64,000 nt of DNA from an uncultured SAR86 cluster bacterium (lineage in GTDB: Bacteria; Pseudomonadota; Gammaproteobacteria; Magnimaribacterales; D2472). The translations under genes were made by a program, and so were the position numbers. The notes below the pieces were generated by a model that made no database searches, was not told the origin of the DNA, and was given only the letters and a program-made list of their open reading frames with translations. The stretch lies in NCBI GenBank assembly GCA_963926355.1, contig CAWUWW010000004.1:18965-82964 (forward strand). Direction: 5' to 3'. Shown here in pieces: positions 6,276-30,309 of the stretch (position 1 is its first letter; the number at the start of each line of letters is the position of its first letter).

Positions 6276-6322
6276 AAGACCCAGGGGATATGAATTTGAG
6301 GATAGCATTCAAAAGGTCTTAC

Positions 6323-12489: not shown

Positions 12490-13185
12490 ATGAAAAACAA
12501 AATACTTGTAATAGAGGATGAGCCAGATATTCGGACTACCCTTGAATACAATCTTAGAAAAGATGGTTTTGATGTTGTATGCGCTGGATCTCTAGGAGAT
12601 GCTAGGGCTGCCATTGATGCATCATCTTTCTCTATGATACTTCTTGATTTAATGCTCCCAGACGGATCTGGTCTAGATTTATGTCGAGAAATTAAAGGCA
12701 ATAAAGATTTAAGCTCTACTCCTATAATCATCTTAACAGCCAAGGATGACGAGGTTGATAAGGTTGTTGGTTTTGAGCTAGGAGCTGATGATTATGTAAC
12801 TAAGCCTTTTAGCGTAAGAGAACTGATCTTGCGAATTAAGGCAGTTTTAAAAAGAGGCGATTCGCCCAAGGCCCACCTTGTAGAGGTTGAGCGTCAATTT
12901 GGGGATCTTACTATTGATGTTGATTCGCATGAGGTGTTTGTAAATAGCGAACAAGTCACACTAACTGCTCTTGAGTTTAGACTATTAAGGCAGCTTGTTG
13001 ATAGACGTGGAAGAGTTCAGTCCAGAGACCAACTTTTATCTGACGTATGGGGTTACAGCTCCGACGTAACTACAAGAACTGTAGATACACACATTAAAAG
13101 ACTTAGAGAAAAACTAGGAACAATGGGTAAGTATGTTCAGACAATTAGAGGCGTTGGTTATAAATTTTCAAGAACACCTGAGTAA
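12490..13185 (+). CDS. phoB: OmpR-family response regulator, PhoB-like
   Basis: Receiver domain (ILVIEDE, LLDLMLPDGSG, LTAK..E) plus winged helix (TRTVDTHIKRLREKLG, IRGVGYKF), collinear with E. coli PhoB. Pho-box-like repeats nearby. Confidence 0.75.
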   Translation: MKNKILVIEDEPDIRTTLEYNLRKDGFDVVCAGSLGDARAAIDASSFSMILLDLMLPDGSGLDLCREIKGNKDLSSTPIIILTAKDDEVDKVVGFELGADDYVTKPFSVRELILRIKAVLKRGDSPKAHLVEVERQFGDLTIDVDSHEVFVNSEQVTLTALEFRLLRQLVDRRGRVQSRDQLLSDVWGYSSDVTTRTVDTHIKRLREKLGTMGKYVQTIRGVGYKFSRTPE

Positions 13186-13189
13186 TTAA

Positions 13190-14947
13190 ATGGGAATAAG
13201 ATCCCGAATATTCTTTATTGTTTTCTCTTTACTTACCGTTAGCATATCTATTGCTTACGTTGTGGCTGAAAGAGATTTATCAACCGCTTTCAAATTTCAA
13301 ATCGTTAATGAGCTCGAAAAACAAGCTAATTTATTAGTTTCTTCTGTAGATAACATAAACAAATTTAAAACAACAACAGAGGCTGATCATAGCGCTGATG
13401 ATCTTGGTAAGGCTTCTAACTCTAGAGTTACTTTTATAAAGAATAATGGAGAAGTGATCGGCGATTCTGAGTTAAATGTTGATCAAATTAAATTAGTTGA
13501 TAATCATATTTCAAGAAAAGAGGTTAAAGAGGCCATTGATAATGGAACAGGTTGGTCTTCTAGATATAGTGATACCCTAAATCAAGATCTTTTATATTTT
13601 GCTATTCGTGACAATCAAGAGATAGAGCCAAATATAATAAGAATAGCAGTTCCCTTGACCTATCTTGATAATGCCACTGATTCACTGGGTCTTTCATTAA
13701 TACTTCTATTTGTTGTGGTTTTTATAGTATCTATGATTGCCAGTGCGGTTGCGGCAAATTTTTTATACTCAAATATAAAAGATTTAGCAGATGTTGCCAC
13801 AACCATTGCTGAGGGAGAGAATAAAAAAGGAGACTTGAAGGCATTACCTACCCAAAGGGGCGATGAGTTTGGAACTGTGGCTAGATCAATTTCTCAAATA
13901 TCAGAAGACCTAAAGAGTCAAATAAAAATGATTGCAAAGCAGAGAGATCAATTCGGACAGGTTTTAGATGACCTTGGTGAAGGCATACTTGTTACGAATA
14001 ATGACGGTGAGGTGGTATTTTCAAATGAACAAACATCTATTATTTTAAATATTAAAAAGCTAGCTAATAAAAATATTAAAAACTTAAAAATTCCAGCTCT
14101 TAATTACCTTTTTAAAAGAGTTGATAATAAAAAAAGAGCTGACATAGAGTTTGAAATTGCACTAGAGGATAAGACAACAAGGTGGGTTCTAGGATCAATG
14201 AATGCCTCAAAAACTACTGGGGACTATATCTTAGTTGTTCATGACATAACTCAGCTAAGACAACTAAACTCAATGAGAAGGGACTTCATATCAAATCTAT
14301 CACATGAATTAAGAACACCTGTAAGTGTTATTAGGGCAAATTCAGAAACTTTGCTTGACGGTGCTCTTGATAATAAGAAGGATGCAAAGACCTTTGCAAA
14401 AGCAATTCTTCATAACTCAGAAAGGCTTTCGGTAATGGTTGCTGATTTAATTGATCTTTCTAGAATTGAATACGGGGATCTTAAATTAAATATTAAAAAA
14501 ATTGATCTTATTATCTTTATGAATGATTTTATAATTTCAATGAAAAGCCTTACAAAGAAAAAGGAAATTGATATTATTTTTAAACCAAGTGATTATAATT
14601 TTGTAAAAGCAGATCCTCAGGCATTGGAACGAATCATGAATAACCTAGTCGACAATGCTTTTAAATATTCTGAGAAGGGCTCAACCATAGAAATATCAAC
14701 AATTAGAGATCATCAGCATGTAAGGGTTTCGGTTTCCGATACCGGCGTGGGCGTTGCAGATGAAGATCAGGAGCATATCTTCGATAGATTCTACAGAACA
14801 GCATCAGCTAGAGCCTCGGATAATAAAGGGAGCGGTCTTGGTCTTGCTATTGTTAAAAATCTTACCAATAGCCTAAATGGTGAGGTTGGTGTTGAATCTA
14901 AAGATTGTTCTGGCTCTATTTTTTGGTTCACTCTTCCTATTAATTAG
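13190..14947 (+). CDS. phoR: sensor histidine kinase, PhoR-like, with a periplasmic domain of about 140 aa
   Basis: Two TM segments (about aa 7-26 and 166-193), HAMP/PAS-like linker, H-box SHELRTPVS, N-box NLVDNAFKY, G-box DTGVGV..GSGLGLAIV. Lies 4 nt after phoB. Confidence 0.7.
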   Translation: MGIRSRIFFIVFSLLTVSISIAYVVAERDLSTAFKFQIVNELEKQANLLVSSVDNINKFKTTTEADHSADDLGKASNSRVTFIKNNGEVIGDSELNVDQIKLVDNHISRKEVKEAIDNGTGWSSRYSDTLNQDLLYFAIRDNQEIEPNIIRIAVPLTYLDNATDSLGLSLILLFVVVFIVSMIASAVAANFLYSNIKDLADVATTIAEGENKKGDLKALPTQRGDEFGTVARSISQISEDLKSQIKMIAKQRDQFGQVLDDLGEGILVTNNDGEVVFSNEQTSIILNIKKLANKNIKNLKIPALNYLFKRVDNKKRADIEFEIALEDKTTRWVLGSMNASKTTGDYILVVHDITQLRQLNSMRRDFISNLSHELRTPVSVIRANSETLLDGALDNKKDAKTFAKAILHNSERLSVMVADLIDLSRIEYGDLKLNIKKIDLIIFMNDFIISMKSLTKKKEIDIIFKPSDYNFVKADPQALERIMNNLVDNAFKYSEKGSTIEISTIRDHQHVRVSVSDTGVGVADEDQEHIFDRFYRTASARASDNKGSGLGLAIVKNLTNSLNGEVGVESKDCSGSIFWFTLPIN

Positions 14948-14984
14948 TTATTTTTTCTTTACATAGCTAACTATATCCATTATT

Positions 14985-15024
14985 ATGTCACAAAGATGTC
15001 ACATTTATGTTTCATAGATGTAAT
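14985..15024 (+). promoter_or_regulatory. array of four 11-bp-phased Pho-box half-sites
   Basis: ATGTCAC (14985), ATGTCAC (14996), ATGTTTC (15007) and ATGTAAT (15018), each exactly 11 bp apart and 38 bp after the phoR stop. Confidence 0.6.
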
Positions 15025-15167
15025 AAATTAAGGAATCAATATGATAAAAATATTTTTCAAAAAACTTCATGTAATTATGAAGTCCGGCAGACTGAATAAG
15101 GTTATAAAGATATCTGGTCTTAATTAATATATACCTAATATATTTGACATATATACAATTATTCAAT

Positions 15168-15184
15168 TGTCATAAAACCGTAAC
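15168..15184 (+). promoter_or_regulatory. Pho box (TGTCATAAAAC-CGTAAC)
   Basis: The first 11 nt equal the E. coli Pho-box consensus TGTCATAAAAC. The second half-site is phased at 11 bp. The site lies 117 bp upstream of the lipoprotein ATG. Confidence 0.5.
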
Positions 15185-15300
15185 AATATAGCTACTTTTA
15201 TTCACAATATTGTGTTTATTAGTAACCTTACATACTTAATAAATTAACATCCTAACTATCTAATAGCTTTCATAAACATTTCCTTGGAGGGAGATTTATT

Positions 15301-18216
15301 ATGTTTGCTAAAACACTAAAGAATTCACTTTACATTTTTACAGCTTTTATACTTATATCTTGTAGCGGCGGTGGAGACACATCTATTGTTTCACCAGGTG
15401 AGATGGGATCTCTTTCTGATCCAACAGGAGGCGGTGGCACTGGTGGAACTAGTAGCTCTGTTCTTTCAGGAACATGTCCAGAGTCCTCATTTATCTCCAA
15501 CGGGTCTCCTGTTGCAGGTAACACTGTTTGTGCAATTACTGGCCCCATTACAGGCGATTTAACTCTTACTGACGATGTAATGTACAGAATGCTAGGCAAA
15601 GTTGATGTTGGTATTGATGATGGCCTTACTGGAACAATAACCATTCCTGCCGGTGTTGTTCTTTTGGGAAAAACATCTAATGACTATATAGTAGTAAATA
15701 GAGGATCTAAGATATTTGCAAATGGCACGCGTTCCAAGCCAATAAGATTTACCCATAATACAGCTATAGAAGGAACCGTTGGAGAATTTGAAAGAGGTCT
15801 TTGGGGCGGCATTGTTATTCTTGGTAAGGCTCCAATCAATAAATGTTCAAACGATGTCAGGGGCACCTCAGATTGTGAAAAGGTTGTAGAAGGATCTGAT
15901 GCATTAATGGGCGGAACAGATATAGCCGATAATTCCGGAAAATTAAACTTCGTAAGAGTTGAATATGCTGGCTATGAAATTTTTCCAGGCAATGAGTTAA
16001 ATGGCATTACATTTGGTGCTGTTGGTTCAGGAACGGTAGTTGATTATGTTCAAGTTCACAATAACCAAGATGATTGTGTAGAATTTTTTGGCGGAACTGT
16101 GAATATTAAACATTTAGTTTGTACCAATGCCGGTGATGATAATTTAGATATTGACTGGGGTTACCAGGGAAAAATGCAATACGTTATCGTAAAGCAAAGC
16201 TCTGATGTTAGTGATCATGTAGTTGAGTCTGATAATACCAATGCTGATGCAGATGTTGGATACCTAACAGAGCCAAGATCAAGACCTATGGTAGCAAACT
16301 TTACCTTCTTGGCACAAGGTGCCGATGAGCCGATGAAATACAAAGAGGGCGTATCAGGTGTTTATATTAATGGAATTATTGTCAATGCAAATCAACAAGA
16401 TATTTTTGAATCAACAAATCTTGAAACGATTCAAGATGGAGCCATTACACCTAAAGTTCAACATCATTCAGTATTTTTTGACTCAGCTGGTGATACTACA
16501 CCTTATGCGTCAGATACATCACACACCGACGCAGAGCTTGAATCATCTATAGTTCAAAGGTCTACAGATCTAGTATCAGGAACTAATTCATTGGTTTCAG
16601 GCTACTTCTTAGGTGACACAGAAGAATCGGTCACTTCAGCATTTAATATTAGTAACATTGACGCTATGTGCGCAGTTGGAACTCATGATATTGGAACAAC
16701 AACTGAACTTTGCCCAGGTTATGATGATGGCAACTATACTGTTAATACATTCTTTTCAGCTACAGACTACATTGGAGCTTTCTCTCCTGGCTCAGACTTA
16801 GAAAATAATTGGGCTGCTGGTTGGACTCTTGGCTTATTTACAGATCCTGAATGCCCTGCTGGAACATTAGATTCTGAAGTTTTACTTGGAAGAAAGGTAT
16901 GCAGCCTTCAGGGTAGTATTACTTCTGACATGACTCTTGTTACAGGCAACTATTATAAAATTGATGGAAAAGTTTCTGTTGGTAATGATATAGGCGCATC
17001 AGGAACAGCAACAGGCGGTTCTTCAGCAACTTTAACTATAGAGCCAGGCGTAACACTATTTGGTGAATCTGGAAATGATTACCTAGTTATCAAGAGAGGC
17101 TCAAAACTTAATGCAATTGGAACTTCTTCTGCTCCTATAGTCATGACTGGTAAGCAGGACTTACTAGGCGATGCTGATATTGTTAGTACTAGAGGTTTAT
17201 GGGGTGGATTAGTAATCCTAGGAAGGGCTCCTATTAATAAATGCTCATTCTCTAGTGCTGGCTCAGCAACAATCGCTGGTGTAAGAGTTGATCCTTGTGA
17301 AAAAGAGGTTGAAGGGTCTGCTGGCGACATGATGGGCGGAGAGGTCCCAACAGACAATAGCGGTTCTATTAAATATTTAAGAATTCAATATGCCGGTTAT
17401 GAGGTATTTCCAGGTAATGAGTTAAATGGAATAACATTTGGAGGTGTAGGATCAGGAACAACTGTTGATTATGTTCAAGTTCATAATAATGCAGATGACT
17501 GTGTTGAGTTCTTTGGTGGAACTGTTGATGTCAAGCATTTAGTCTGTACTGGTGCAGGTGACGATAACCTAGATATTGATTGGGGTTATGTAGGCAGATT
17601 ACAGTATGTAATTGTTCAACAATCTAATAGTACAGGCGATCATATAGTTGAATCAGACAACGTAAATAGTGACAGTGCAGTTGGTTATCTTACAGAACCA
17701 AGATCTAACCCAATTGTCTCTAATTTTACTTTTATTAGTAAAGGACATGATGATATCTTTAAACTAAAAGAAGGTGTATCAGGTCAGTATTACAATGGCG
17801 TGGCCATCGTTAACAGTTCAGTTTCAGGTAAATCTACTAACTGTATTGAAACTACATTTAACGAAACAGTTAAATCTGGTGCAGTTACTCCAACTTTCTC
17901 AATGAATTCTATTGCAATGGAATGTAATGGTTTTATTAAGACTGATGGAAATGCAACTGTCGCTGAGGTTGAAGCAATTGTTAAAGCTGGTTCAAATAAC
18001 TTATACGGCAATAACTCAGGAGGAGGAACTTATTCAAACACATTAAGTGGTGTTATCAATGGCTCATCTGAAGCATCTGCAAGTGTTACATCTATTCCAG
18101 AGTCATACAATTCTGATAACTTTTTTGATACCACTTCATATATTGGAGCGGTAAGTGGAGTAACAGATACTTGGTATAAAAACTGGACACTTTCAGGAAC
18201 TATAGAAGTCCAATAA
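15301..18216 (+). CDS. large surface-type lipoprotein, internally duplicated (beta-helix-like guess), family unknown
   Basis: GGAGGGAG RBS upstream. Lipobox LISC-SGGGD followed by a Gly/Ser/Thr tether. Two collinear halves of about 450 aa share long identical blocks, e.g. PGNELNGITFG.VGSGT.VDYVQVHNN.DDCVEFFGGTV..KHLVCT.AGDDNLDIDWGY. Confidence 0.85.
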   Translation: MFAKTLKNSLYIFTAFILISCSGGGDTSIVSPGEMGSLSDPTGGGGTGGTSSSVLSGTCPESSFISNGSPVAGNTVCAITGPITGDLTLTDDVMYRMLGKVDVGIDDGLTGTITIPAGVVLLGKTSNDYIVVNRGSKIFANGTRSKPIRFTHNTAIEGTVGEFERGLWGGIVILGKAPINKCSNDVRGTSDCEKVVEGSDALMGGTDIADNSGKLNFVRVEYAGYEIFPGNELNGITFGAVGSGTVVDYVQVHNNQDDCVEFFGGTVNIKHLVCTNAGDDNLDIDWGYQGKMQYVIVKQSSDVSDHVVESDNTNADADVGYLTEPRSRPMVANFTFLAQGADEPMKYKEGVSGVYINGIIVNANQQDIFESTNLETIQDGAITPKVQHHSVFFDSAGDTTPYASDTSHTDAELESSIVQRSTDLVSGTNSLVSGYFLGDTEESVTSAFNISNIDAMCAVGTHDIGTTTELCPGYDDGNYTVNTFFSATDYIGAFSPGSDLENNWAAGWTLGLFTDPECPAGTLDSEVLLGRKVCSLQGSITSDMTLVTGNYYKIDGKVSVGNDIGASGTATGGSSATLTIEPGVTLFGESGNDYLVIKRGSKLNAIGTSSAPIVMTGKQDLLGDADIVSTRGLWGGLVILGRAPINKCSFSSAGSATIAGVRVDPCEKEVEGSAGDMMGGEVPTDNSGSIKYLRIQYAGYEVFPGNELNGITFGGVGSGTTVDYVQVHNNADDCVEFFGGTVDVKHLVCTGAGDDNLDIDWGYVGRLQYVIVQQSNSTGDHIVESDNVNSDSAVGYLTEPRSNPIVSNFTFISKGHDDIFKLKEGVSGQYYNGVAIVNSSVSGKSTNCIETTFNETVKSGAVTPTFSMNSIAMECNGFIKTDGNATVAEVEAIVKAGSNNLYGNNSGGGTYSNTLSGVINGSSEASASVTSIPESYNSDNFFDTTSYIGAVSGVTDTWYKNWTLSGTIEVQ
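15475..16833 (+). repeat. intragenic tandem duplication, copy 1
   Basis: Runs from CPESSF to YIGAFSPGSDLENNWAAGWTLG. Collinear with copy 2, and similarity is still visible at nucleotide level (e.g. 15989-16170 vs 17411-17595). Confidence 0.85.
16852..18213 (+). repeat. intragenic tandem duplication, copy 2
   Basis: Runs from CPAGTL to YIGAVSGVTDTWYKNWTLSG. Offset from copy 1 is 459-474 codons. Confidence 0.85.
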
Positions 18217-18253
18217 GCGCTATTAATATATAAATTTTTTATTGGAGAGATTA

Positions 18254-20881
18254 ATGAGAAGAATAAATATGAAATCAAAGTTCCAGATTCTAAAAGTTGC
18301 GATTAGCTTGATACTAATAGCCCCTTTAACAATGGCGCAAGAGATTGAAGAGGTTGTGGTAAGCGGATCTTTTATCCCAGATCAAAAAAGAGATACATCA
18401 GAAATATCAGCAATACTTGATTCTTCAGAGATAGAAAGAACAGGTGATGATAATATCGCAATAGCTCTAACAAGGCTGACTGGCTTAAGCCTTGTTAGAG
18501 GAAAGTACGTCTATGTAAGAGGTCTTGGTGAAAGATACTCAGCAGCAACCTTAAATGGATCTAATCTACCTAGCCCAGAGCCTCTAAAAAGGGTTGTACC
18601 TTTGGATTTATTTCCCACTCAAATGATTCAATCAGCAGTAATACAAAAAACATATTCAGCTGACATGCCTGCAGAGTTTGGTGGAGGTGTTATTGAGATT
18701 GAAACAAAAAGTATTCCTACTGAAAGAATCTTAGATATATCATTTTCTTCTGCATTAAATGATGTAACTAATTTAAAAGATGGCCTTCTTTATGATGGCG
18801 GAGGACATGATGACCTTGGTTATGATGATGGCACTAGAGATATTCCTAATTTTGTACAATCTGCTATTAATAATGGCTTAAAACTTGATAGGTCCAATTT
18901 TCAGACTTATGAATTATCTAATGCGGGTAGAGAGTTCGAGAACTCTAAACTATGGGTTATTCAAGAGGGTGAAATACCTTTAGATTCATCGTTTAATATT
19001 ACTTATGGAGATGAGTTTGATATAGGTATTGATGAAATTCTTGGAGATGACAGCGCAACCTTTGGTTTTATGGCAACTGCTGGAATGAGAAGTTCTTGGG
19101 ATGCTCAAGAGGGTATTCGTCAAACCGGAACACTTCAGGCCCAAGGGGATGGAACTTCTAATATTATTATTTCAAATAATAAAACATTTAGAAGTACCTC
19201 TAATGACGTAACATCTTATTTAATGTCAGTATTGGGTGTAGAGGCAGATACATATGAGATTAAATATACGGGTATGTTTATTCACAAAGGATCAAAAAAA
19301 GCTAGAGTTCTCCAAGGCTATGACTCAAGTGATTCAGGCAATGTCAGAGAAGACTTTACAGAATTTTTTGAAAGAGAGCTAACCAATCATCAAATTAATT
19401 ATTCATACCAATTCATAAATGACTATGAGCTAGATATTAGATTAACTTCTGGCGAAGCCTCAAGAAATGCTCCTTATGAAAGAGCGGTATTTTATGAAGA
19501 TACTGATGATAGAGGTTTTTGGAGATATGACGTTAACACTGGAAGAAACCAAACTCAGTTTAGTTATGTTAAAGATACTAACGAAAATATAGGCTTTGAT
19601 TTAACAGCTCCTTTGAATATCGATGGTACTGAAATTATTGTTAAAATTGGCTCAGATTATACGGAAAATAATAGAGAGGCTGAGGTGCGAAGCTTTAGAT
19701 TTCTAGCTGAAGGAGGTCCTATTCCCTTGGATGGGCTTGATAATAGGGTTGATTATTTATTTGAGGATAAGAACTTTGATCCTTCTAGATTAATTCTTAT
19801 AGAGAATACTGCTGCATCCTCACCGGCTGGGTACCAAGGTTTGCTAGAATCTAATGCTGCATACCTAAGTGTTGACGCATATCTAAATGAAAACTTTAGA
19901 TTAACTGCCGGCGTTAGGTCTGAGAGTGGGCTGCAGGAGGTTAATACCTATGATGTATTTAAACCTGTTGATCTTAATATAGAGAAAACAATTGATAAAA
20001 ACTATACATTACCTTCATTTACACTCACATATCTTCCAGACTTTGATGAAAATCTTCAAGTAAGATTAGGATTATCTAAAACAATTGCAAGACCTACATT
20101 TAGAGAACTGTCCCCAACATTATTTATTGATGTTGATACTGACAGGGTTATTGCAGGCTCCTTATATTTAGAAAATTCAGAGTTAGATAATATTGATTTA
20201 AGAGTCGAATACTACTGGGGATTTAATCAATTCTTAACAGCTGGGTTCTTTTATAAAGATATATCGAAGCCAATTGAAGAAGTGGTTAATGAGTCAGGTG
20301 ATTTAATCGTTACTTCATATCAAAATGTTCCGGGCGCTGAGCTTACAGGTTTTGAAATTGAGTATGAAAAAATATTCGAAGATCTATTGCCAGAATCTCG
20401 TTGGACTCAAAGTAAAGAATTCATGTTTAAAATTAACATTACATCAACTGAGTCGGAAGTGGTATATGGCATAAATGATACTTATACAAATAGTCAAGGG
20501 CGTGCAGTAAGTGCTTCTTCATTATTTACCAATGGAAGAGATACAAGGCTTCAGGGTCAGTCTGACATAATCAGTAACTTACAAGTTGGGTGGGATGATC
20601 TCCAAACTGGTTCTCAGGGAACTCTTATTATTAACTATGTTAGTGATAGGGTGAGGGCCAGAGGTATTGATGTCCTTCCTGATGTAATTGAAGAACCTCC
20701 ATTGCTTGTAGATTTTGTTTACTCTAAGGAAATTCCATATGACTTCGCAATACTCAAACTTTCAGTTGAATTAAGGAACTTATTGGACGAAGGGTATTTT
20801 GCATCTATGGCATCATCTGTAATATATGATCAATATAAATTAGGAAGATCCGCATCATTTGGTTTTAAATTTAGCTTCTAA
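18254..20881 (+). CDS. TonB-dependent outer-membrane receptor
   Basis: GGAG 6-7 nt before ATG 18254 (the ORF track starts at TTG 18242). Signal peptide, TonB box EEVVVSGSF, plug motif VRGLGERYSAATLNG, C-terminal beta-barrel ending FGFKFSF. Confidence 0.9.
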   Translation: MRRINMKSKFQILKVAISLILIAPLTMAQEIEEVVVSGSFIPDQKRDTSEISAILDSSEIERTGDDNIAIALTRLTGLSLVRGKYVYVRGLGERYSAATLNGSNLPSPEPLKRVVPLDLFPTQMIQSAVIQKTYSADMPAEFGGGVIEIETKSIPTERILDISFSSALNDVTNLKDGLLYDGGGHDDLGYDDGTRDIPNFVQSAINNGLKLDRSNFQTYELSNAGREFENSKLWVIQEGEIPLDSSFNITYGDEFDIGIDEILGDDSATFGFMATAGMRSSWDAQEGIRQTGTLQAQGDGTSNIIISNNKTFRSTSNDVTSYLMSVLGVEADTYEIKYTGMFIHKGSKKARVLQGYDSSDSGNVREDFTEFFERELTNHQINYSYQFINDYELDIRLTSGEASRNAPYERAVFYEDTDDRGFWRYDVNTGRNQTQFSYVKDTNENIGFDLTAPLNIDGTEIIVKIGSDYTENNREAEVRSFRFLAEGGPIPLDGLDNRVDYLFEDKNFDPSRLILIENTAASSPAGYQGLLESNAAYLSVDAYLNENFRLTAGVRSESGLQEVNTYDVFKPVDLNIEKTIDKNYTLPSFTLTYLPDFDENLQVRLGLSKTIARPTFRELSPTLFIDVDTDRVIAGSLYLENSELDNIDLRVEYYWGFNQFLTAGFFYKDISKPIEEVVNESGDLIVTSYQNVPGAELTGFEIEYEKIFEDLLPESRWTQSKEFMFKINITSTESEVVYGINDTYTNSQGRAVSASSLFTNGRDTRLQGQSDIISNLQVGWDDLQTGSQGTLIINYVSDRVRARGIDVLPDVIEEPPLLVDFVYSKEIPYDFAILKLSVELRNLLDEGYFASMASSVIYDQYKLGRSASFGFKFSF

Positions 20882-20938
20882 GATGACTAAATTTTAATCT
20901 TCCATTTGTCAAAACTTGAGATACAAGATAAATTAATA

Positions 20939-20968
20939 ATATGAGCTACAATGTAGCTCATATTTTTT
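20939..20968 (+). terminator. rho-independent terminator after the TonB receptor gene
   Basis: ATATGAGCTAC, loop AAT, GTAGCTCATAT (11-bp perfect stem), then a T-run that runs directly into the gspC ATG. Confidence 0.75.
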
Positions 20969-21370
20969 ATGTTAAATTTTAAGAATACAAAGAAATTTCT
21001 ATTGATGCTTGTAATTACGCCATCAGTTTTTTTATTAATTCTATCTAGTTATTCGATTATAAATAAACCAGATATTAAAAAAATTAATCCTATTGATTTA
21101 AAGGATATAGATATGCTGAGTTCTTTTAGCGAGGATTCTAAAGTTTACTCTGACACCGCAGTCACAGAGGATTTTAACTATAAACTTATTGGCATTAGAG
21201 CAGGAGAGACTGACTCATCAGTGATAGTCAAGAAGGGCAATAAAGAGTATGTGGTCGCTCTAGGTGAGAGACTTGAAGAGATATACGAACTTATAGAAGT
21301 TACTCAAAATGAAGCAGTGTTTCGAAATGGTAAAAATGTGTATAAAATTAATAATATTATAGGTAAATAA
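20969..21370 (+). CDS. gspC: type II secretion protein C-like (TM + HR domain only, no PDZ)
   Basis: N-terminal TM, then an HR/PilP-like segment (YKLIGIRAGETDSSVIVKKGNKEYVVALGERLEEIYELIEV). Sits immediately 5-prime of gspD. Confidence 0.6.
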   Translation: MLNFKNTKKFLLMLVITPSVFLLILSSYSIINKPDIKKINPIDLKDIDMLSSFSEDSKVYSDTAVTEDFNYKLIGIRAGETDSSVIVKKGNKEYVVALGERLEEIYELIEVTQNEAVFRNGKNVYKINNIIGK

Positions 21371-21371
21371 T

Positions 21372-23222: not shown

Positions 23223-23229
23223 CAATACG

Positions 23230-24732
23230 ATGCCTGAAGTAGTTGATATCAAAAATATTTCTGATATTTTTCCATACGACTTTGTAAGAGAGAATGAGGT
23301 AATTGCTTCATTTGATAGCTCTTCTGGGTATGAGGTGATATCTCCAAATAAATTAACATCAGATCTATATCACGAAATTCAAAGATACCTTAAATCAAAT
23401 TTTACTTTTATTCTTTGTAATTCAGATGATTTTAATGAACTTCTTACTAATAGTTTTTCTATTGATAGCGGTTCATCTAATATCTCAGAAGAGCTATCAG
23501 ATGAATTTGATCTTCAAACATTTGCTGGAAGTATAGCTGCTACAGAAGATCTTTTAAGTGGCAGTAATGACACGCCAATAATAAAATTAATTAATGGAAT
23601 TATTAGTCAGGCTATAAAAAGCAGAGCATCAGACATCCATTTTGAACCTTATGAAAAAAAATTAGTAGTTAGATTTCGAGTTGATGGAATTTTAAAAGAG
23701 ATTTTGAGTCAAGATAGTAAGATTTCTTCAGTCCTTATCTCTAGAATAAAAATTATATCAGGGTTAGATATTTCTGAAAGACGACTCCCTCAAGACGGAA
23801 GAGTCTCGCTATCATTAGGAGATAAAAGTATTGATGTCAGGGTTTCAACCCTTCCTTCATCTTACGGAGAAAGGGTTGTTTTAAGACTTCTCGATAAACA
23901 ATCAGCTCAGATAAATATAGAAGACCTGGGCTTACCTTCAAAAATATTATCTAATTACAAGTCATCTCTAAAAAATCCAGAAGGCATAATACTTTTTACA
24001 GGTCCGACTGGTTCTGGAAAAACAACTACACTTTACGCAGGTCTAAGATTCTTAAGTGACTCTTCTCAAAATATCCTCACTGTAGAGGATCCTATTGAAT
24101 ATACTCTAAATGGAATAGGGCAAACTCAAGTAAATACTAAAACTGGTTATACTTTTGCAAAAGGCCTTAGGGCTATTTTGAGACAAGATCCAGATGTAGT
24201 TATGGTCGGTGAAATGAGAGATGTGGAAACAGCACAGATTGGTATTCAGGCAAGTTTAACTGGCCATTTAGTTCTTTCTACAGTTCATACCAATAGCGCC
24301 ATAGCGGCTATTACAAGGCTTAGAGATATGGGAATTGAATCCTTTCTTCTTGCTTCAAGTCTTCGTACGATTATTTCACAAAGGTTAGTTAGAAGACTCT
24401 GTAAGGGGTGTAAATATGAAGAAGTTGCTTCTAGCCAAGCAGTTAATTTATTTAATTTAGATCCCGGTATTGGAATATGGAATTCAAAAGGTTGTAATGA
24501 GTGCTCAAATACTGGGTACCAGGGAAGAATTGCAATAGCTGAATGTATTCAGGTCGATAAAAAATTAAAAGAAATGATCCACAATCATGAATCTGAAAAT
24601 GTTATCTCAGAGTATGTCTTTAAAGATAACCAATCAATAGACCAAGCATCTAGAGACCTTTTAATATCAGGTATTACATCTTGCGATGAGCTAATTAGGG
24701 TTGGAAACCTCCAGGAAGATGTCGGCATATAG
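23230..24732 (+). CDS. gspE: type II secretion ATPase
   Basis: Walker A GPTGSGKTTT, Asp/His boxes, tetracysteine CKGC...CNEC, and SDIHFEP. Confidence 0.93.
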   Translation: MPEVVDIKNISDIFPYDFVRENEVIASFDSSSGYEVISPNKLTSDLYHEIQRYLKSNFTFILCNSDDFNELLTNSFSIDSGSSNISEELSDEFDLQTFAGSIAATEDLLSGSNDTPIIKLINGIISQAIKSRASDIHFEPYEKKLVVRFRVDGILKEILSQDSKISSVLISRIKIISGLDISERRLPQDGRVSLSLGDKSIDVRVSTLPSSYGERVVLRLLDKQSAQINIEDLGLPSKILSNYKSSLKNPEGIILFTGPTGSGKTTTLYAGLRFLSDSSQNILTVEDPIEYTLNGIGQTQVNTKTGYTFAKGLRAILRQDPDVVMVGEMRDVETAQIGIQASLTGHLVLSTVHTNSAIAAITRLRDMGIESFLLASSLRTIISQRLVRRLCKGCKYEEVASSQAVNLFNLDPGIGIWNSKGCNECSNTGYQGRIAIAECIQVDKKLKEMIHNHESENVISEYVFKDNQSIDQASRDLLISGITSCDELIRVGNLQEDVGI

Positions 24733-25915
24733 TTACATAGCGATAGACATAACTGGCATCAAAAAAAAAGGGGTCTTAAGTGCTCAATCAGAAAGAGAAG
24801 CTAGAAAATTAATTAAAGACCTTAATTTAACTCCCATATCTGTTCAAGAAACAAAGGGGAACCTTTCCTATCTTTCAAAGGTTAAAAATAAAGATATTGT
24901 AATAATGACTAGGCAGTTAGCAACCTTGCTAGAAGCAAATACATCTATTATGGATGCCATAAAAATAACCGCAGATCAGTCTAGTAACAAGAACTTAGTT
25001 CATATTCTCTACAATCTAAGAGAGGATATTATTCAAGGAAAGCGACTTGGACTATCTATGAAAAAGTATCCAGGAGTTTTTTCAGATACCTATACGTCTT
25101 TAGTTTCAGCGGGTGATTCATCTGGTAACTTGGATGTAATTTTTGATAAATTAGCAGACTACTTAGAGGAAAGTGCGTCTATAAGGCAGAAGGTTGTATC
25201 AGCCTTGGCATATCCATTTATCTTAATTGGTTTCTCAGTAATTGTTATTATAGCTCTTCTAGCTTTTGTTCTTCCTCAGGTCATTGGCCAGTTCATTAAA
25301 GCAGGCGCTGAACTTCCTTTCATTACAAAAGCTCTCCTAGCTCTTTCTAATAATATAATGATAATTATAGCTATTCTTTTATTTATATTTTTTGGTCTTT
25401 CTTATCTCTATAAGCAATTCATTAAAGACCCAGAAAAGCATATTATTGCTCACAGTAAAATTCTTTCATTGCCTCTTATGGGTAATTTTATTCTTACATC
25501 TGAAATAGAAAGATTTTCTAGTACTATGGCATTACTTCTTGAGTCAGGTACAAATCTAGATATTGCTCTAGAAGAGTCATCAAGAATATTTAATAACAGA
25601 TATCTATCAAAGTTAATTCTAGATGCTAAAAGTGATGTTATGGAAGGGAAGGACTTTATATACACTTTGAATCAAGCTAATATTTTTCCAGATATATTTA
25701 TCCAGCTCATCTCAAGCGGCTATAAGTCTGGAAATCTAATAAAAATGTTCCATAAGGTATCTCATTTTTTAAAAAATGAAATTGAATCAAAACGATCTGT
25801 ATTCTTGGCTCTTTTAGAGCCCTTGGTTATTGTTTTTATGGGTGGTTTTATTATGCTCATTGTTCTGGCTATACTTATACCTATAATGCAGATGAATACA
25901 TTATCTTTAGGATAA
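24719..25915 (+). CDS. gspF: type II secretion inner-membrane platform protein
   Basis: N-terminus MSAYSYIAIDITGIKKKG matches the GspF/EpsF start. Two GspF repeats and 3 TM. The ORF-track start at 24701 is an upstream TTG. Confidence 0.9.
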   Translation: MSAYSYIAIDITGIKKKGVLSAQSEREARKLIKDLNLTPISVQETKGNLSYLSKVKNKDIVIMTRQLATLLEANTSIMDAIKITADQSSNKNLVHILYNLREDIIQGKRLGLSMKKYPGVFSDTYTSLVSAGDSSGNLDVIFDKLADYLEESASIRQKVVSALAYPFILIGFSVIVIIALLAFVLPQVIGQFIKAGAELPFITKALLALSNNIMIIIAILLFIFFGLSYLYKQFIKDPEKHIIAHSKILSLPLMGNFILTSEIERFSSTMALLLESGTNLDIALEESSRIFNNRYLSKLILDAKSDVMEGKDFIYTLNQANIFPDIFIQLISSGYKSGNLIKMFHKVSHFLKNEIESKRSVFLALLEPLVIVFMGGFIMLIVLAILIPIMQMNTLSLG

Positions 25916-25918
25916 ATT

Positions 25919-26347
25919 ATGAATAAATATAAGAAAGGTTTTACTCTAATAGAACTCATGGCGGTTTTAGTCATACTGGGCATACTAGCAACTATTGTTG
26001 TTGTTAATGTGGCGCCTGTATTCCAAAGAGCTAATTTAGAAAAAATAAAAGCAGACATGGCCCAGACAGGTAAAGCCTTAGAGATTTATAAATTTAATGA
26101 ACTCTCCTACCCTTTAACTTCTGAGGGATTAGATGCTCTAATAACAGCTCATTCAGGACTAAAAAATCCTTTCTTATTCCCTGAAGATGGCTACATCTCT
26201 TCATTGCCGTTGGATCCTTGGGGTAGGGAATATATTTATGAATATCCCCCAAGAAAATCTAAAAAATTTGATTTATACACTCTTGGTGCCGATGGCATGG
26301 AGGGTGGATCAGGTGAGGACACAGATATTGGCAACTGGATGCAATAA
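25919..26347 (+). CDS. gspG: major pseudopilin
   Basis: Prepilin leader MNKYKKG-FTLIELMAVLVILGILA. C-terminal LDPWGREY..YTLGADG. Confidence 0.92.
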   Translation: MNKYKKGFTLIELMAVLVILGILATIVVVNVAPVFQRANLEKIKADMAQTGKALEIYKFNELSYPLTSEGLDALITAHSGLKNPFLFPEDGYISSLPLDPWGREYIYEYPPRKSKKFDLYTLGADGMEGGSGEDTDIGNWMQ

Positions 26348-26831
26348 ACCTTCAAAAGGATTTACTCTGATAGAGGTTCTGGTTGTTCTGGTAGTAATAG
26401 GTATTGCAACTTCTCTCGTGGTTTTAAATTTTAGTGCAGTTACTTCAACATCAAAACAGAGCGCATCATTTACCCAAACATTTAACCATCTCACAGAAGA
26501 GAGCATTATTACTGGAAATATTATTGGCTGGCATGCCAATAATAGAGATGACTTTTCTTATTATTTAGATATTAATAACAAGCTATCTAATAAATTAGAT
26601 GACCCTCATCCATCTCACTGGAATGAACTCTCTAATTACAGAAAAACATTTAAATCATTTGATGGTTCTTTTTTAGAGCTTGATGAAGACTCCCTGGACA
26701 CGCCCTTATTAATATTTTATCCATCAGGAGAAAACTCTGGAGGAGTTATAAATATATATTTTAATGAATATGCGCAAGAAATTACAATAAACTCCAATGG
26801 AAAAGTCCAAATTGAAATTATTAGCTACTAA
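26328..26831 (+). CDS. gspH: minor pseudopilin GspH (start uncertain: TTG 26328 or ATG 26292)
   Basis: Prepilin motif KG-FTLIEVLVVLVVIGIA. No ATG lies close to the leader. The ORF stays open back to 26187, overlapping gspG. Confidence 0.75.
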   Translation: MATGCNKPSKGFTLIEVLVVLVVIGIATSLVVLNFSAVTSTSKQSASFTQTFNHLTEESIITGNIIGWHANNRDDFSYYLDINNKLSNKLDDPHPSHWNELSNYRKTFKSFDGSFLELDEDSLDTPLLIFYPSGENSGGVINIYFNEYAQEITINSNGKVQIEIISY

Positions 26832-27186
26832 AAATAAAGGCTTTAGCCTTATAGAGGTTGTTGTTGCCCTTGTTATTTTAAGTACATCTGTTGTGGCTAT
26901 ATACAATCTAATTCTATCTACAAGTGGGTCTATTTATAAGCTTGAGGATCACTATCTCTCTAAAGAAGTGGCTAACAATAGAATTGCTCTTATTCACACC
27001 TTAGAAAAGCCTAACCAGCCAGGCTTGAGGAGTGGCTCTATGGATATGGGAGGAAAGACATGGATATGGGAAGAGTCTTTCAATGATGGTATTACAAAAG
27101 ATTTTCTAGAGTATCAAATTCTTATTAAAGCTAAAGACTCCAAGGACTATGTATATAAAATTAATGGATACATAGTAAATGAATAA
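26797..27186 (+). CDS. gspI: minor pseudopilin GspI
   Basis: Motif KG-FSLIEVVVALVILS, with size and position typical of GspI. Confidence 0.8.
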   Translation: MEKSKLKLLATKNKGFSLIEVVVALVILSTSVVAIYNLILSTSGSIYKLEDHYLSKEVANNRIALIHTLEKPNQPGLRSGSMDMGGKTWIWEESFNDGITKDFLEYQILIKAKDSKDYVYKINGYIVNE

Positions 27187-27775
27187 AAAGGGGTTCACTA
27201 TTATTGAAGTTTTAGTCTCACTGATTATTCTTTCAATTATTGCAGTTATTTCTTCGAACATACTTCAGTCCTCTTTGGATACTGAGAGGAATACCACCAA
27301 ACATCTCAACTCTATAAAGGAGCTAAACCTTTCCTCAAGTATATTAAGAAGAGATATAAGGCAGATAGTTAATATTCCATCCAGAGATTTCTTTGGAAAT
27401 ACTCTCTACGGTACATTTATTTCATACGAAAACTCTGAAGCAATAATGTTTAATACAAGAGTTAAGTCTCTTTCAAATGAAGTCTCCCCAATTAAAAGAG
27501 TCGAATATATTTTAGAAAAAGATGTGCTATTTAGAAGACAATATTACTCATCAAACCCTTACGATCAAAATGATTATGTCGAATCTGTAATGCTTGAGAG
27601 CCTTGAGAATCTAAATTTTACCTTTATGTATGAAAATAAATGGTATAGCTCTTGGCCTGTCAGTTCTATAACGGCAAGAAAGATTCCAACTTTAATAAAA
27701 CTAGAGTTCTTAATTAACAATAGAGTGTATTCATGGCTAGTTGAACCAAATATTTCATATGCAAACCAAGACTAA
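27179..27775 (+). CDS. gspJ: minor pseudopilin GspJ
   Basis: Motif MNKKG-FTIIEVLVSLIILS, about 200 aa, positioned after gspI. Confidence 0.8.
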   Translation: MNKKGFTIIEVLVSLIILSIIAVISSNILQSSLDTERNTTKHLNSIKELNLSSSILRRDIRQIVNIPSRDFFGNTLYGTFISYENSEAIMFNTRVKSLSNEVSPIKRVEYILEKDVLFRRQYYSSNPYDQNDYVESVMLESLENLNFTFMYENKWYSSWPVSSITARKIPTLIKLEFLINNRVYSWLVEPNISYANQD

Positions 27776-28727
27776 AGGCGTTGTCCTAATATCAGTCTTA
27801 TTGATTGTTCTTTTACTTTCATCTGTTGCTGTAATAATGGGAAATAATTATTTAATTTCTTTGAAAAGAGCCTCTTATCTAGAGTTTCAAACAAATTCAT
27901 TGAACTTTTTCAGAAATATTGAATCATTAGCTCTTAAGAAAATAAATCAAGAGCTGAGATTTAATAGTAATTTTCATAATAAACAGAATTCACTATTCCT
28001 AAATAATTTTACTTTTGAGACTGATAAGGGAAGGATTTTTGGTCAGATAGTTGATAGATCAAGTTGCTTTAATGTTAATGCTATGGTGCTAAAGACAGAA
28101 TCTAATTTTGTTCCAAATAAAAAATCAATCCTAGCTTTTCGGAGGCTTATGGAGCTCAGGGAAATTGATAATAGCTTAGTTGATGAGGCAATAGATCAAA
28201 TAATAGACTGGATTGATCTTGACTCAGACCCAAGAGCATACGGTTTAGAAGATTATTATTATTCCGGACCTCTCAATACACCTAAAGAATATTCTGGAAA
28301 GAGATTATTTTATTCAGTTGAAGAGTTAAAAAGCCTCCCAGCAATAAGGGCGATAGGCTGGAATATCTTTAATGATGATTTTTGCGCAATTCCTGAAAGT
28401 AAAGATTTTACACTTAATATTAATACCTTAAATTTAGAAGATTCATACCTGCTTGCTTCGTTATTTACCGACCTTCAACTCAGCGATGCAGAATATATCA
28501 TCATGAATATTCCAGAGGAGGGTGTTAGGAGTCAGGTTGAGTTATCAAAGTTATTCCCTTCCTATGAGCTTGGCCCAGCAAACGGAGTAATAAATTATTC
28601 TTCCAAGTCATTTAATTTAATTACATCCATCAGCTACGAAGATTTTAACTCAGAGTCAATTAGTAAAATCTATTACGGTAATAATAAGAATAGCTATATT
28701 ATTTCAAGAATTTATAATGGTATTTAA
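27759..28727 (+). CDS. gspK: minor pseudopilin GspK
   Basis: MQTKTKGVVLISVLLIVLLLS lacks the Glu+5 residue, as in GspK. About 320 aa. The ORF-track start at 27741 is TTG. Confidence 0.75.
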   Translation: MQTKTKGVVLISVLLIVLLLSSVAVIMGNNYLISLKRASYLEFQTNSLNFFRNIESLALKKINQELRFNSNFHNKQNSLFLNNFTFETDKGRIFGQIVDRSSCFNVNAMVLKTESNFVPNKKSILAFRRLMELREIDNSLVDEAIDQIIDWIDLDSDPRAYGLEDYYYSGPLNTPKEYSGKRLFYSVEELKSLPAIRAIGWNIFNDDFCAIPESKDFTLNINTLNLEDSYLLASLFTDLQLSDAEYIIMNIPEEGVRSQVELSKLFPSYELGPANGVINYSSKSFNLITSISYEDFNSESISKIYYGNNKNSYIISRIYNGI

Positions 28728-29870
28728 ATGAGCTTATATATTGCACACCCTTTAGATGATTTTATGGAATTAATTAACCTTTATACTTTTGATGAAGGTA
28801 GGGAGTTTGTTCGCTCTATTAAGGATGTTAGCGAAATCGGAGTTCTTGATGATGAGGATAAATTAATTTTTTTAATACCTTCAAGCTTGATAACATCTTA
28901 TATATTTATTCAAAATAAAGAACTGTCTACTCAAGTTAATCTAGCAAATTTTATATCTGAAATAGACTCAAAAATTGTTGGTCAGGTTTCTGATAATGAG
29001 TACCTATTCCATGAAGACAATGCTTTTGCTATAAATAAAAAAACTTTATTAGATATCAATACTTCTTTAAGTAGTTTAAATGGATCTATTTATCTAGTTC
29101 CAGAGTATTCTGTAAGCCACATAAGAGATATAGATATCATTTCGCAGATTGGTTTAAAGTATTTATTCTCTTATTCAGATGGAACTGGTTTTGGGGTAGA
29201 AGAAGATTTTTTAAACCAGTATTTAGATATTATTACTAATAATAAGCCTGACTTTCATCCAACAGTTAGTAGTTTGAATGATGATTTAAATAAGAGGTTT
29301 GAAATATCTAGCTCTCCTTTTTCTTTTTTAAAGCTATCAGAGTCTGATCTAATGCAACTCCCTAATTTTTTTAAATTAAAAATATCACTTAATTTGCTTA
29401 TAAAGAAGCTTTCCTTTTCAAGATCTCAAATTATAGTATGCGCCATTTCATTGATTATTTTGATCTCAGCTCCCAATTTCCTAATATATCAAAATGAGAA
29501 AAACGCAAAAGTTTATAGCTCAGCCACCTTTGATATATTTAAAACGATTAATAAAGATATTAAAAAAGTTGTTTCACCTAAATCTCAAATTGATCAATTA
29601 TTAAAAGATATTCCAGATAACCTCAATACAAAAACAAAACTTCCAAACTTAGACCTTTTCTACAATTTAGGCTCAAAATACCTTTCAAGGTCTTCTATTG
29701 ATATTAATAGATCTATTGCCACCATAACCATAGAGTCAATGCCAGAGTTGCAGTATAGGTTGATTCAAGGCGCATCATCTAAATTTGGGATAACAATAGT
29801 AAACTCCGATGTTGATTTTCAAAATGGTTTTGTAGATGGCGAAATACTCTTGAGGTTTGATAATGAATAA
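28728..29870 (+). CDS. gspL: type II secretion protein L-like
   Basis: Position in the operon, about 380 aa, with a single TM near aa 235-255. Sequence is divergent. Confidence 0.6.
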   Translation: MSLYIAHPLDDFMELINLYTFDEGREFVRSIKDVSEIGVLDDEDKLIFLIPSSLITSYIFIQNKELSTQVNLANFISEIDSKIVGQVSDNEYLFHEDNAFAINKKTLLDINTSLSSLNGSIYLVPEYSVSHIRDIDIISQIGLKYLFSYSDGTGFGVEEDFLNQYLDIITNNKPDFHPTVSSLNDDLNKRFEISSSPFSFLKLSESDLMQLPNFFKLKISLNLLIKKLSFSRSQIIVCAISLIILISAPNFLIYQNEKNAKVYSSATFDIFKTINKDIKKVVSPKSQIDQLLKDIPDNLNTKTKLPNLDLFYNLGSKYLSRSSIDINRSIATITIESMPELQYRLIQGASSKFGITIVNSDVDFQNGFVDGEILLRFDNE

Positions 29871-30309
29871 TTTCCTCACTAATCTTGAGACTCGTGAAAG
29901 AAGGCTTATATTCATTGCTCTTGGGCTTATTTTATCCATGTCAATTATTTTTGGAATTAACTCTTTTTTAAACAAATACTCAACCTCTGTTAAAAACCTT
30001 AATAAAGCAAAGTCTAATTATGAATACGTTCATTTAAAAGCTCTTGCCTTAGAGCGCCCGACAATTTTTGGGTATATTACAAATGAAAGCCTTGAAACCC
30101 TTCTTAAAAAGAAAAATTTATTATCTGCTATTTCAAATATTGATATTTCAAATGATGATTCGTTAGTGACTATTAAATTCAATACGACTAATTTAAAAGA
30201 CGCTGTTAGCTTTTCTGAAGATATTGCCAACAACAATAGTATGAAACTTGGTAAAATTATTTACACTCAGTCCCAAGATAAAATAGAATTCGAACTTATA
30301 TTAAATTAG
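29857..30309 (+). CDS. gspM: type II secretion protein M-like
   Basis: Position, 150 aa, N-terminal TM (RRLIFIALGLILSMSIIFGI). Overlaps the gspL end. Confidence 0.6.
   Translation: MIMNNFLTNLETRERRLIFIALGLILSMSIIFGINSFLNKYSTSVKNLNKAKSNYEYVHLKALALERPTIFGYITNESLETLLKKKNLLSAISNIDISNDDSLVTIKFNTTNLKDAVSFSEDIANNNSMKLGKIIYTQSQDKIEFELILN

Follow-up and report, generated by a model that had tools for sequence, protein, structure and literature searches.

The DNA analysed here, a 64-kb stretch from an uncultured SAR86 cluster bacterium (the window, GC content ~33%), contains a candidate phosphate-starvation module within a run of 15 consecutive + strand genes (12490–30309). The run leads from a phoB-like and a phoR-like gene through a 353-bp spacer to the genes for a 971-residue lipoprotein and a TonB-dependent transporter, then a hairpin and the type II secretion system (T2SS) genes gspC to gspM. 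This layout had been reported in a preliminary description of the sequence and is upheld by the table of open reading frames (ORFs) and by matches to Pfam and NCBIfam.

We compared the locus with 79 related loci, taken from a scan of one genome per species. The closest of these come from SAR86 single-cell and metagenome genomes and have an identical gene order. Seventy-two loci carried enough sequence to be scored for the transporter, 55 were fully flanked and could be scored for the T2SS, and 76 supplied upstream regions.

The lipoprotein and its transporter

The lipoprotein gene (15301–18216, + strand) encodes a signal peptide, a lipobox with Cys21, a tether that extends to around residue 56 and two β-helix domains. 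The N-terminus reads MFAKTLKNSLYIFTAFILIS-C21-SGGG, with the lipobox LISC and Ser at the +2 position; the protein thus has a lipobox signal that lacks an inner-membrane retention residue. No match was found in the local Pfam-A, NCBIfam and PDB sequence libraries, either with the single protein or with a 30-sequence profile. A search with the second repeat returned more than 5,000 homologues, all of them tagged PF28492, which is named Beta_helix_4 in the gene table of a Caulobacter locus. This family is newer than the local Pfam copy, and the assignment rests on the precomputed tags of the homologues. Most family members are single-domain proteins of ~500 residues from Sphingomonadales, Caulobacterales and Hyphomonadaceae, and the databases annotate the majority merely as "lipoprotein" or "hypothetical".

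Each repeat aligned end to end by BLASTP with the Caulobacter vibrioides protein P0256, at 35–37% identity (repeat 2, E 1e-78; repeat 1, E 6e-75). P0256 belongs to a C. vibrioides strain other than CB15 and was identified as ElpS from synteny, size and its LAGC lipobox. It sits in the 90%-identity cluster of the protein from a Caulobacter endophyticus locus (L080), where the Beta_helix_4 gene is followed by a TonB-dependent transporter gene and the T2SS genes C to K, matching the published order cc0170-cc0171-gspC..N. The Caulobacter family proteins carry the LAGC lipobox that was reported for ElpS. Judged by its sequence, the window lipoprotein is a member of the ElpS family (Pfam PF28492, Beta_helix_4), and the earlier view that it belonged to no named family has to be given up. 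Of the routes that had been suggested towards its identity, the profile search gave no local match and Foldseek returned generic β-helices only; the tags of the homologues led to PF28492.

AlphaFold2 (AF2) predicted a single repeat to be a right-handed parallel β-helix, with a predicted local distance difference test (pLDDT) score of 87 and a predicted template modelling (pTM) score of 0.91. In the full-length prediction, residues 1–56 (signal and tether) are disordered and both domains, at about residues 59–510 and 517–971, are confident, while their arrangement is only moderately so (pTM 0.67). The structures retrieved from the PDB by Foldseek were generic β-helices, namely tailspikes, chondroitinase B, pectate lyases and a galactosidase (template modelling score ≤0.37, E ≥2e-3).

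The two domains arose by an internal tandem duplication (47% identity, E 2e-130), as had been recognised earlier. Both repeats retain all 52 invariant positions of the family alignment, including a cluster comprised of H213, N214, D217, D218, E221, D239, D240, D243 and E269 in repeat numbering, suggesting that each repeat has a site for a metal or ligand. Forms with two domains are found in SAR86, in Hyphomonadaceae/Maricaulaceae and in the Rheinheimera/Aliidiomarina group, and one locus, from a gammaproteobacterial metagenome-assembled genome (L075), has a three-domain form. N- and C-terminal domains are 55–66% identical within a lineage, compared with 37–45% to the domains of other lineages. 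Since domains are closer within than between lineages, either the duplications were independent or the repeats have been homogenised by gene conversion.

The lipid-bearing Cys is followed, 7–16 residues on, by an [IV][AS]SPG(E/D) motif and then a Gly/Pro/Thr-rich linker (window 15361–15420, residues 21–40). The [ST]PG core is present in 70 of 78 family members, the window protein among them, and is missing in the Rheinheimera/Aliidiomarina group. The motif may be a sorting or cleavage signal, because it lies just before the reported cleavage site of ElpS.

The transporter gene (18254–20881, + strand) encodes the cognate transporter of the lipoprotein, a protein of the CC0171/BT4055 type with a Plug domain and with TIGR01782 (177 bits) as its only NCBIfam match. 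Its true start is the ATG at 18254, which stands behind a GGAGAG ribosome-binding site and 37 bp past the lipoprotein stop codon, the distance that had been given before. We rejected the TTG at 18242, which is merely where the mechanical longest ORF begins. A transporter gene lies immediately downstream of the lipoprotein gene in 71/72 loci. These linked transporters score 268–633 bits against the window transporter, versus 55–98 bits for unlinked TonB receptors of the same loci.

An intrinsic-terminator-like hairpin (20938–20964, + strand), whose 12-bp stem is followed by a T run, closes this pair and ends at the gspC start codon. It is shared by six SAR86 loci, among which three of its base pairs show compensatory changes, and agrees with elpS-transporter and gsp being separate transcription units. 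This conservation fits the finding in Caulobacter that the T2SS and elpS are regulated separately.

Pho boxes and the two-component pair

The spacer upstream of the lipoprotein gene (14948–15300, 353 bp) contains six Pho-box half-sites in 11-bp phase, all predicted from sequence. Four make up a distal array (14986–15024, + strand), with TGTCAC at 14986 and 14997, TGTTTC at 15008 and TGTAAT at 15019, for which Tandem Repeats Finder reported a period of 11. The other two form a proximal box, TGTCATAAAACCGTAAC (15168–15184, + strand; TGTCAT at 15168 and CGTAAC at 15179), 117 bp upstream of the start codon. We required of a Pho box at least two CTGTCAT-type 7-bp direct repeats, 11 bp apart centre to centre, upstream of the regulated promoter, and the sequences at 14986–15024 and 15168–15184 both have this form. 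The preliminary description had thus been right about Pho-box-type elements in the spacer, while its count of five gives way to six half-sites.

The exact motif TGTMAY-N5-TGTMAY occurs three times in the window, always between genes, against 0.22 expected, and none of 100 shuffles reached three. Two of these exact boxes, TGTCACAGTTTTGTAAC and TGTCACTGTTATGTAAC, lie at 2177–2224 (+ strand), upstream of a 145-residue ORF (2251–2688) that has a Sec signal and no family assignment; this is probably another Pho-regulated secreted protein. A weaker Pho-like box, CTTCACATAAATGTCAC (32060–32076), is found 49 bp upstream of a PHO4/PiT transporter gene, and upstream of gspC we saw no convincing Pho box.

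Across the 76 upstream regions, the 300 bp before the lipoprotein gene hold 56 Pho-box matches with at most one mismatch, compared with 0.88 ± 0.96 in dinucleotide shuffles of the same regions, an enrichment of ~60-fold. The density upstream is 2.5/kb versus 0.06/kb in the remainder of the loci (~40-fold). The matches lie mostly on the coding strand between −70 and −190, and such boxes precede the lipoprotein orthologues in SAR86 and in other lineages alike. Just downstream of the distal array in the window is a 28-residue ORF (15041–15127) that has the ribosome-binding site AAGGAA. It is missing from the shorter spacers (~100–130 bp) of other SAR86 loci and may represent a small gene, a leader peptide or mere chance.

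The first of the 15 genes (12490–13185, + strand) encodes a phoB-like response regulator of the OmpR family, with the Pfam domains Response_reg and Trans_reg_C. Its top NCBIfam match is PhoB (TIGR02154), at 240 bits, below the cutoff of 296. The phoR-like sensor histidine kinase that follows (13190–14947, + strand) has the Pfam domains HisKA, HATPase_c and PAS and the NCBIfam matches PnpS, WalK and PhoR, again below the cutoffs (PnpS 303 against 400 bits; PhoR, TIGR02966, 242 against 334). Its hydropathy profile indicates two transmembrane segments around a periplasmic domain of ~140 residues, unlike E. coli PhoR.

Orthologues of the regulator are found upstream of elpS in four SAR86 loci (L001, L003, L008 and L009), and in two SAR86 clades PhoB is the regulator's top match. 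In Rheinheimera and Allosphingosinicella, the elpS-transporter pair is adjoined by regulators that pass the curated PhoB cutoff. The Rheinheimera-type Gammaproteobacteria have phoBR and the pair in divergent orientation, and Allosphingosinicella has phoB upstream of the pair. Regulators above the cutoff stand beside the pair in five loci (L054, 7330–9447; L025, 7922–8776; L065, L067 and L069). Because the Rheinheimera and Allosphingosinicella regulators pass the cutoff, we count linkage to phoB or phoBR in at least four lineages, Flavobacterium being included from the literature. Although the scores fall short of the cutoffs, an identity as PhoBR is favoured by the regulator's top match, by the repeat motif and by the genomic setting. 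SAR86 has been reported to have only two ABC (ATP-binding cassette) importers, for peptides and iron (Dupont et al. 2012, PMC3358033), and would on that account lack PstSCAB. As the phosphate ABC transporter is reported to be lacking, phosphate sensing in SAR86 may bypass Pst/PhoU.

The type II secretion system and the surrounding genes

The gsp genes follow the hairpin on the + strand. Those for the secretin GspD (21372–23222; Pfam Secretin, Secretin_N and GspD N0), the ATPase GspE (23230–24732; T2SSE, 472 bits), GspF (24719–25915; T2SSF, from a chosen start codon), the major pseudopilin GspG (25919–26347; T2SSG and N_methyl), GspI (26797–27186; T2SSI), GspJ (27179–27775; T2SSJ) and GspK (27759–28727; T2SSK_1st) have strong Pfam matches. 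The minor pseudopilin gene gspH (26328–26831, start uncertain) matches N_methyl. Three proteins have weak matches (E 0.003–0.05), each to the expected family, and were assigned with further help: GspC (20969–21370; T2SSC, E 0.0033) from its position and SAR86 orthologues, and GspL (28728–29870; GspL_C) and GspM (29863–30309; T2SSM) from gene order. The set gspC to gspM that had been read from the sequence is therefore borne out. GspN was not found. A prepilin peptidase of the gspO/pilD type (6323–7177, − strand; Pfam Peptidase_A24 and A24_N_bact) is encoded apart from the gsp genes and completes the T2SS core set (D, E, F/L/M/C, G–K and O); the Peptidase_A24 family is present in 14 related loci.

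Of the 55 fully flanked loci, 31 have a T2SS no more than 10 kb from the lipoprotein gene, and these 31 span SAR86, Hyphomonadaceae, Sphingomonadales, Caulobacter, Brevundimonas and Phenylobacterium. In SAR86, the order elpS, transporter, gsp is found in subclades both with and without phoBR upstream. The preliminary description had placed a terminator before gspC, as we find, and had allowed that the adjacency of the T2SS might be coincidental; since a T2SS is near elpS in so many loci across these lineages, we take the adjacency not to be coincidental.

Further phosphorus genes surround the locus. To its right, a Ppx/GppA gene (30306–31166, − strand) abuts the end of the T2SS and is followed by genes for PPK2 (31163–31999, − strand), the PHO4/PiT phosphate transporter (32125–33372, + strand), a porin (34040–35002) and a glycerophosphodiester phosphodiesterase (GDPD, 39207–39938). 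To its left is a gene for a PhoD-like phosphatase (2703–3680, − strand; PF09423, 47.6 bits), the N-terminus of which has a signal without twin arginines, in keeping with the Sec-type signal ascribed to it before. In its gene content, the window is a phosphorus island, with PhoD-like, Ppx, PPK2, PiT and GDPD genes. Six other loci (L011, L022, L054, L065, L067 and L069) also have a Ppx/GppA-family gene at most 10 kb from elpS. Beyond the transporter, T2SS, prepilin peptidase, PhoB/R and an occasional Ppx/GppA, no protease or phosphatase recurs in more than a few of the 79 loci.

Five genes for exported proteins (2251–6198) adjoin the prepilin peptidase gene, the cluster as a whole spanning 2251–7177. 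They encode the 145-residue ORF, the PhoD-like protein, a 252-residue lipoprotein, a 252-residue secreted protein and a 240-residue lipoprotein, four of the five have no Pfam match, and all five are candidate T2SS cargo. At a greater distance, the window holds two neighbouring ammonium transporter genes (41107–43837, − strand) and a region (52475–57770) in which a second TonB-dependent receptor (CarboxypepD_reg, Plug and barrel, 1027 residues) is followed by a 2-oxoglutarate/Fe(II) (2OG-Fe(II)) oxygenase and a Na+/nucleoside transporter. This region may be another uptake unit, separate from the elpS module.

Proposed function of the module and relation to known systems

Studies of homologous systems bear on the likely function of this locus. 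In Caulobacter crescentus, cc0170 (elpS, CCNA_00169), the TonB receptor gene cc0171 and gspC..N form a phosphate-starvation locus (Le Blastier et al. 2010, PMC2996285). Caulobacter ElpS is made only under phosphate starvation, is palmitoylated and resides in the outer membrane, where it is accessible to proteinase K even in a gsp deletion; it is cut near residue 38, and its release requires the T2SS (PMC2996285). Overexpression of ElpS raises the phosphatase activity of the supernatant, although ElpS itself has no such activity (PMC2996285). The Caulobacter PhoB regulon takes in the T2SS and several TonB receptors (PMC11208175). In Flavobacterium johnsoniae, Fjoh_0545/0546 are listed under "PhoBR operon" and rise by a log2 fold change of 8–10 (250- to 1000-fold) solely when phosphate is depleted, and among the exoproteins of phosphate-depleted cells the lipoprotein Fjoh_0546 is a major component (Lidbury et al., PMC8115612). 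A 2023 preprint proposes that BT4056, an ElpS homologue, is the "lid" of the transporter BT4055, places BT4056 on the outer face of BT4055 in an AlphaFold-Multimer model, and reports adjacent pairs of this type in 621 genera, 171 of them proteobacterial (bioRxiv 10.1101/2023.03.17.533168). The T2SS (xcs) clusters of Xanthomonas, for which a role in adaptation to nutrient stress was proposed, carry an ElpS homologue, XAC0692 (PMC7777525). We found no literature specific to SAR86 together with an ElpS-type system.

Taking the homology, gene linkage, Pho-box enrichment, conserved terminator and predicted fold together, we consider it likely that the locus is the SAR86 orthologue of the ElpS/TonB-dependent transporter/T2SS phosphate-starvation module and works as follows. 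At low phosphate, the PhoR-like kinase would phosphorylate the PhoB-like regulator, which would bind the 11-bp-phased repeats at 14986–15024 and 15168–15184 and switch on a two-gene operon of the elpS-like gene and the transporter gene, ending at the hairpin. The lipoprotein would leave the cytoplasm by Sec, be lipidated at Cys21, travel by Lol to the outer membrane as its Ser at +2 predicts, and be displayed at the surface by means of a flexible ~35-residue tether, which starts with the conserved xSPGE motif. Its two β-helix domains, each with the invariant acidic/His cluster, would act as the substrate-binding lid of the transporter, which would import a phosphorus-containing compound too large for porins. 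The separately transcribed gspC to gspM genes, with the prepilin peptidase, would secrete helper proteins; possible cargo are the Sec-type PhoD-like phosphatase or a protease of the kind inferred in Caulobacter, which would set ElpS free. Induction by phosphate starvation, surface exposure and T2SS-dependent release are expected here by analogy with the homologues in which they were shown, with the upstream Pho boxes and the adjacent phoBR as indirect support; the lid function, the class of substrate and the T2SS cargo we infer.

Much of this had been anticipated in the preliminary description, which proposed Pho-regulated capture of a phosphorus compound by a lipoprotein and TonB receptor tied to a T2SS. 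That proposal is supported by the studies of homologues, by the linkage counts (71/72 for the transporter, 31/55 for the T2SS) and by 56 Pho boxes against an expected 0.9. Had homologues never been linked to TonB receptors or pho genes, it was to be abandoned; the neighbourhood comparison finds the opposite, with a linked transporter in nearly every locus and phoB adjacent in several lineages. In essence the earlier inference holds, and experiments in other bacteria had led to it before.

Several points weigh against the proposed mechanism. The induction, surface location and T2SS-dependent release on which it draws were shown in homologues only. In Caulobacter, cc0171 was reported to be constitutive, deletion of elpS had no phosphatase phenotype, and purified ElpS did not hydrolyse p-nitrophenyl phosphate (pNPP) in a phosphatase assay; a change in cellular phosphate was not detected (PMC2996285). 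The multimer model of BT4055/BT4056 shows few contacts of high confidence (bioRxiv 10.1101/2023.03.17.533168). In the window, the regulator falls below the NCBIfam PhoB cutoff, and upstream of phoB itself we saw no Pho box. Of the 55 fully flanked loci, 24 have no T2SS within 10 kb, and the fold offers no clue to the ligand, because its structural matches are so weak.

The most serious alternative is that ElpS is mainly a released extracellular factor, either an enzyme or an activator or scaffold of phosphatases, and not a lid. In that case the decisive event would be the T2SS-dependent release, and the transporter would do no more than import what results. The cleavage and release of Caulobacter ElpS, the rise in supernatant phosphatase activity on its overexpression and the prominence of Fjoh_0546 in the exoproteome speak for such a factor, as do the invariant His/Asp/Glu cluster, which could be catalytic or bind a metal, and a fold shared with pectate lyases, glycosidases and tailspikes. 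However, ElpS showed no phosphatase activity when purified or immunoprecipitated, and the activity of the supernatant did not change in the deletion mutant. The near-universal adjacency to one transporter subfamily (71/72 loci here; 621 genera in the preprint) argues for a physical partnership, and Bacteroidota hold the pair with no T2SS. A released factor is compatible with much of the data and does not exclude a lid; as the main role of ElpS, we consider it somewhat unlikely.

More speculatively, the ElpS-transporter pair could be the main high-affinity route for phosphorus across the outer membrane of SAR86 and be directed at a polyanionic pool, a proposal we regard as rather doubtful. With the same reserve, a Ca2+/acidic site on the β-helix might bind, for example, polyphosphate, or material that is phytate-like or derived from nucleic acids. 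If the lid works as a pair of β-helices, the independent rise of tandem duplication in three or more lineages would have an explanation, and on this reading Proteobacteria would co-inherit a dedicated T2SS as machinery for maturation or release of the lid.

The pair might instead serve polysaccharide utilisation, as a β-helix lyase or hydrolase with a carbohydrate-type TonB transporter, the link to phosphate being secondary. The pectin-lyase-like fold and its best, weak, structural matches (chondroitinase B, galactosidase and tailspikes) would suit this role, and the only NCBIfam match of the transporter, TIGR01782, is the TonB-Xanth-Caul subfamily, which includes sugar transporters. Against it, induction of the homologue is specific to phosphate depletion, with repression under N or Fe limitation, the Pho boxes are ~60-fold enriched across the 76 upstream regions, phoB or phoBR is adjacent in four separate lineages, and no glycoside hydrolase, lyase or sugar-catabolism gene is conserved near the pair in the 79 loci. 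We find this explanation improbable.

It is equally improbable that the SAR86 T2SS is merely a neighbour of the elpS-transporter operon with no functional tie to it. The conserved terminator parts the two units, the T2SS is missing from the 24 loci noted above, and when the Gsp proteins were compared, it did not become clear whether the whole module had been transferred together: GspD is 34–38% identical to alphaproteobacterial elpS-linked secretins versus 32% for E. coli K-12, and GspE, F and G show no trend towards either the elpS-linked or the E. coli K-12 proteins. A search with the GspD N-terminus was filled by SAR86 variants; it shows that this secretin is common in marine metagenomes and is uninformative on the origin of the T2SS. 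However, the order elpS, transporter, gsp recurs from SAR86 to Caulobacter, Brevundimonas and Phenylobacterium, through Hyphomonadaceae and Sphingomonadales, the Xanthomonas xcs clusters also hold an ElpS homologue, and in Caulobacter the release of ElpS needs the T2SS, which itself falls within the PhoB regulon.

That the genes at 12490–14947 are not PhoBR, that the repeats are not PhoB sites and that the operon answers another signal is most improbable. In favour of this reading, the equivalog cutoffs are missed by both proteins, the kinase matches PnpS/WalK best and has a periplasmic domain unlike that of E. coli PhoR, and canonical PhoR senses phosphate by way of a phosphate ABC transporter that SAR86 reportedly lacks. 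Against it, PhoB tops the regulator's matches in two SAR86 clades, the repeats have the classical Pho-box form of TGTCA-type 7-mers in 11-bp phase, the motif also precedes elpS in lineages whose adjoining regulator passes the PhoB cutoff, and more boxes stand beside the PiT transporter and a secreted protein within the phosphorus island.

The likely assignment to the ElpS module matters because few heterotrophic lineages of the surface ocean are as abundant as SAR86, and TonB-dependent receptors, most of them with no known substrate, dominate its streamlined genome. One such receptor (18254–20881) can now be tied to phosphate starvation, with experimental precedent in Caulobacter and Flavobacterium, and the elpS-transporter operon provides a concrete marker of phosphorus stress for SAR86 metatranscriptomes and metaproteomes. 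The invariant acidic cluster, the recurrent tandem duplication, the SPG tether motif and the linkage to T2SS and phoBR offer handles for finding the substrate. As the module and its regulation have already been published, the discovery is incremental. New here are phoBR joined upstream in SAR86, the seemingly independent tandem duplications and the surrounding phosphorus island; the interest lies in the ecological setting and the substrate still sought, the concept itself not being new.

The closest known counterpart is the Caulobacter ElpS locus. Both have a homologous lipoprotein (35–37% identity per repeat to the C. vibrioides protein), in which the lipobox is followed by the conserved xSPGE motif and a Gly/Pro-rich linker, both place lipoprotein, TonB receptor and gspC onward in this order with the prepilin peptidase apart, and both have Pho-box-type sites upstream. 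They differ in that Caulobacter ElpS has ~487 residues, whereas the SAR86 protein is a tandem duplication of 971, and in that SAR86 has phoBR directly upstream, a terminator hairpin before gspC and no recognised gspN. Unlike Caulobacter, the host is a streamlined, low-GC marine gammaproteobacterium. The Xanthomonas xcs clusters are similar in joining a T2SS to an ElpS homologue, a likeness drawn from the published description.

In Bacteroidota, the Fjoh_0545/0546 pair also lies next to phoBR. There the order is transporter then lipoprotein, the reverse of SAR86, and Bacteroidota, to which both this pair and BT4055/BT4056 belong, have no T2SS and use a lipoprotein export signal of their own. 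The relation of the window protein to BT4056 and Fjoh_0546 rests on the statement of ElpS homology in the preprint.

The pullulanase PulA of Klebsiella is likewise a lipoprotein tied to a T2SS and eventually released from the surface. The preliminary description had considered T2SS export of this kind, which we rejected: PulA has Asp at +2 and relies on the T2SS for passage across the outer membrane, whereas the SAR86 protein has Ser at +2 and Caulobacter ElpS is accessible to proteinase K in a gsp deletion. Membership of the SusD family, or of a SusCD pair, was rejected too, since the lipoprotein has no SusD or other match in the local Pfam-A and a predicted β-helix fold. ElpS, with its right-handed β-helix, has no relation in sequence or fold to SusD (tetratricopeptide repeats), TbpB (handle/barrel) or BtuG (propeller). 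The resemblance to SusC/SusD, TbpA/TbpB and BtuB/BtuG is instead one of arrangement, in which a lipid-anchored surface protein would capture the ligand for the adjacent TonB-dependent barrel.

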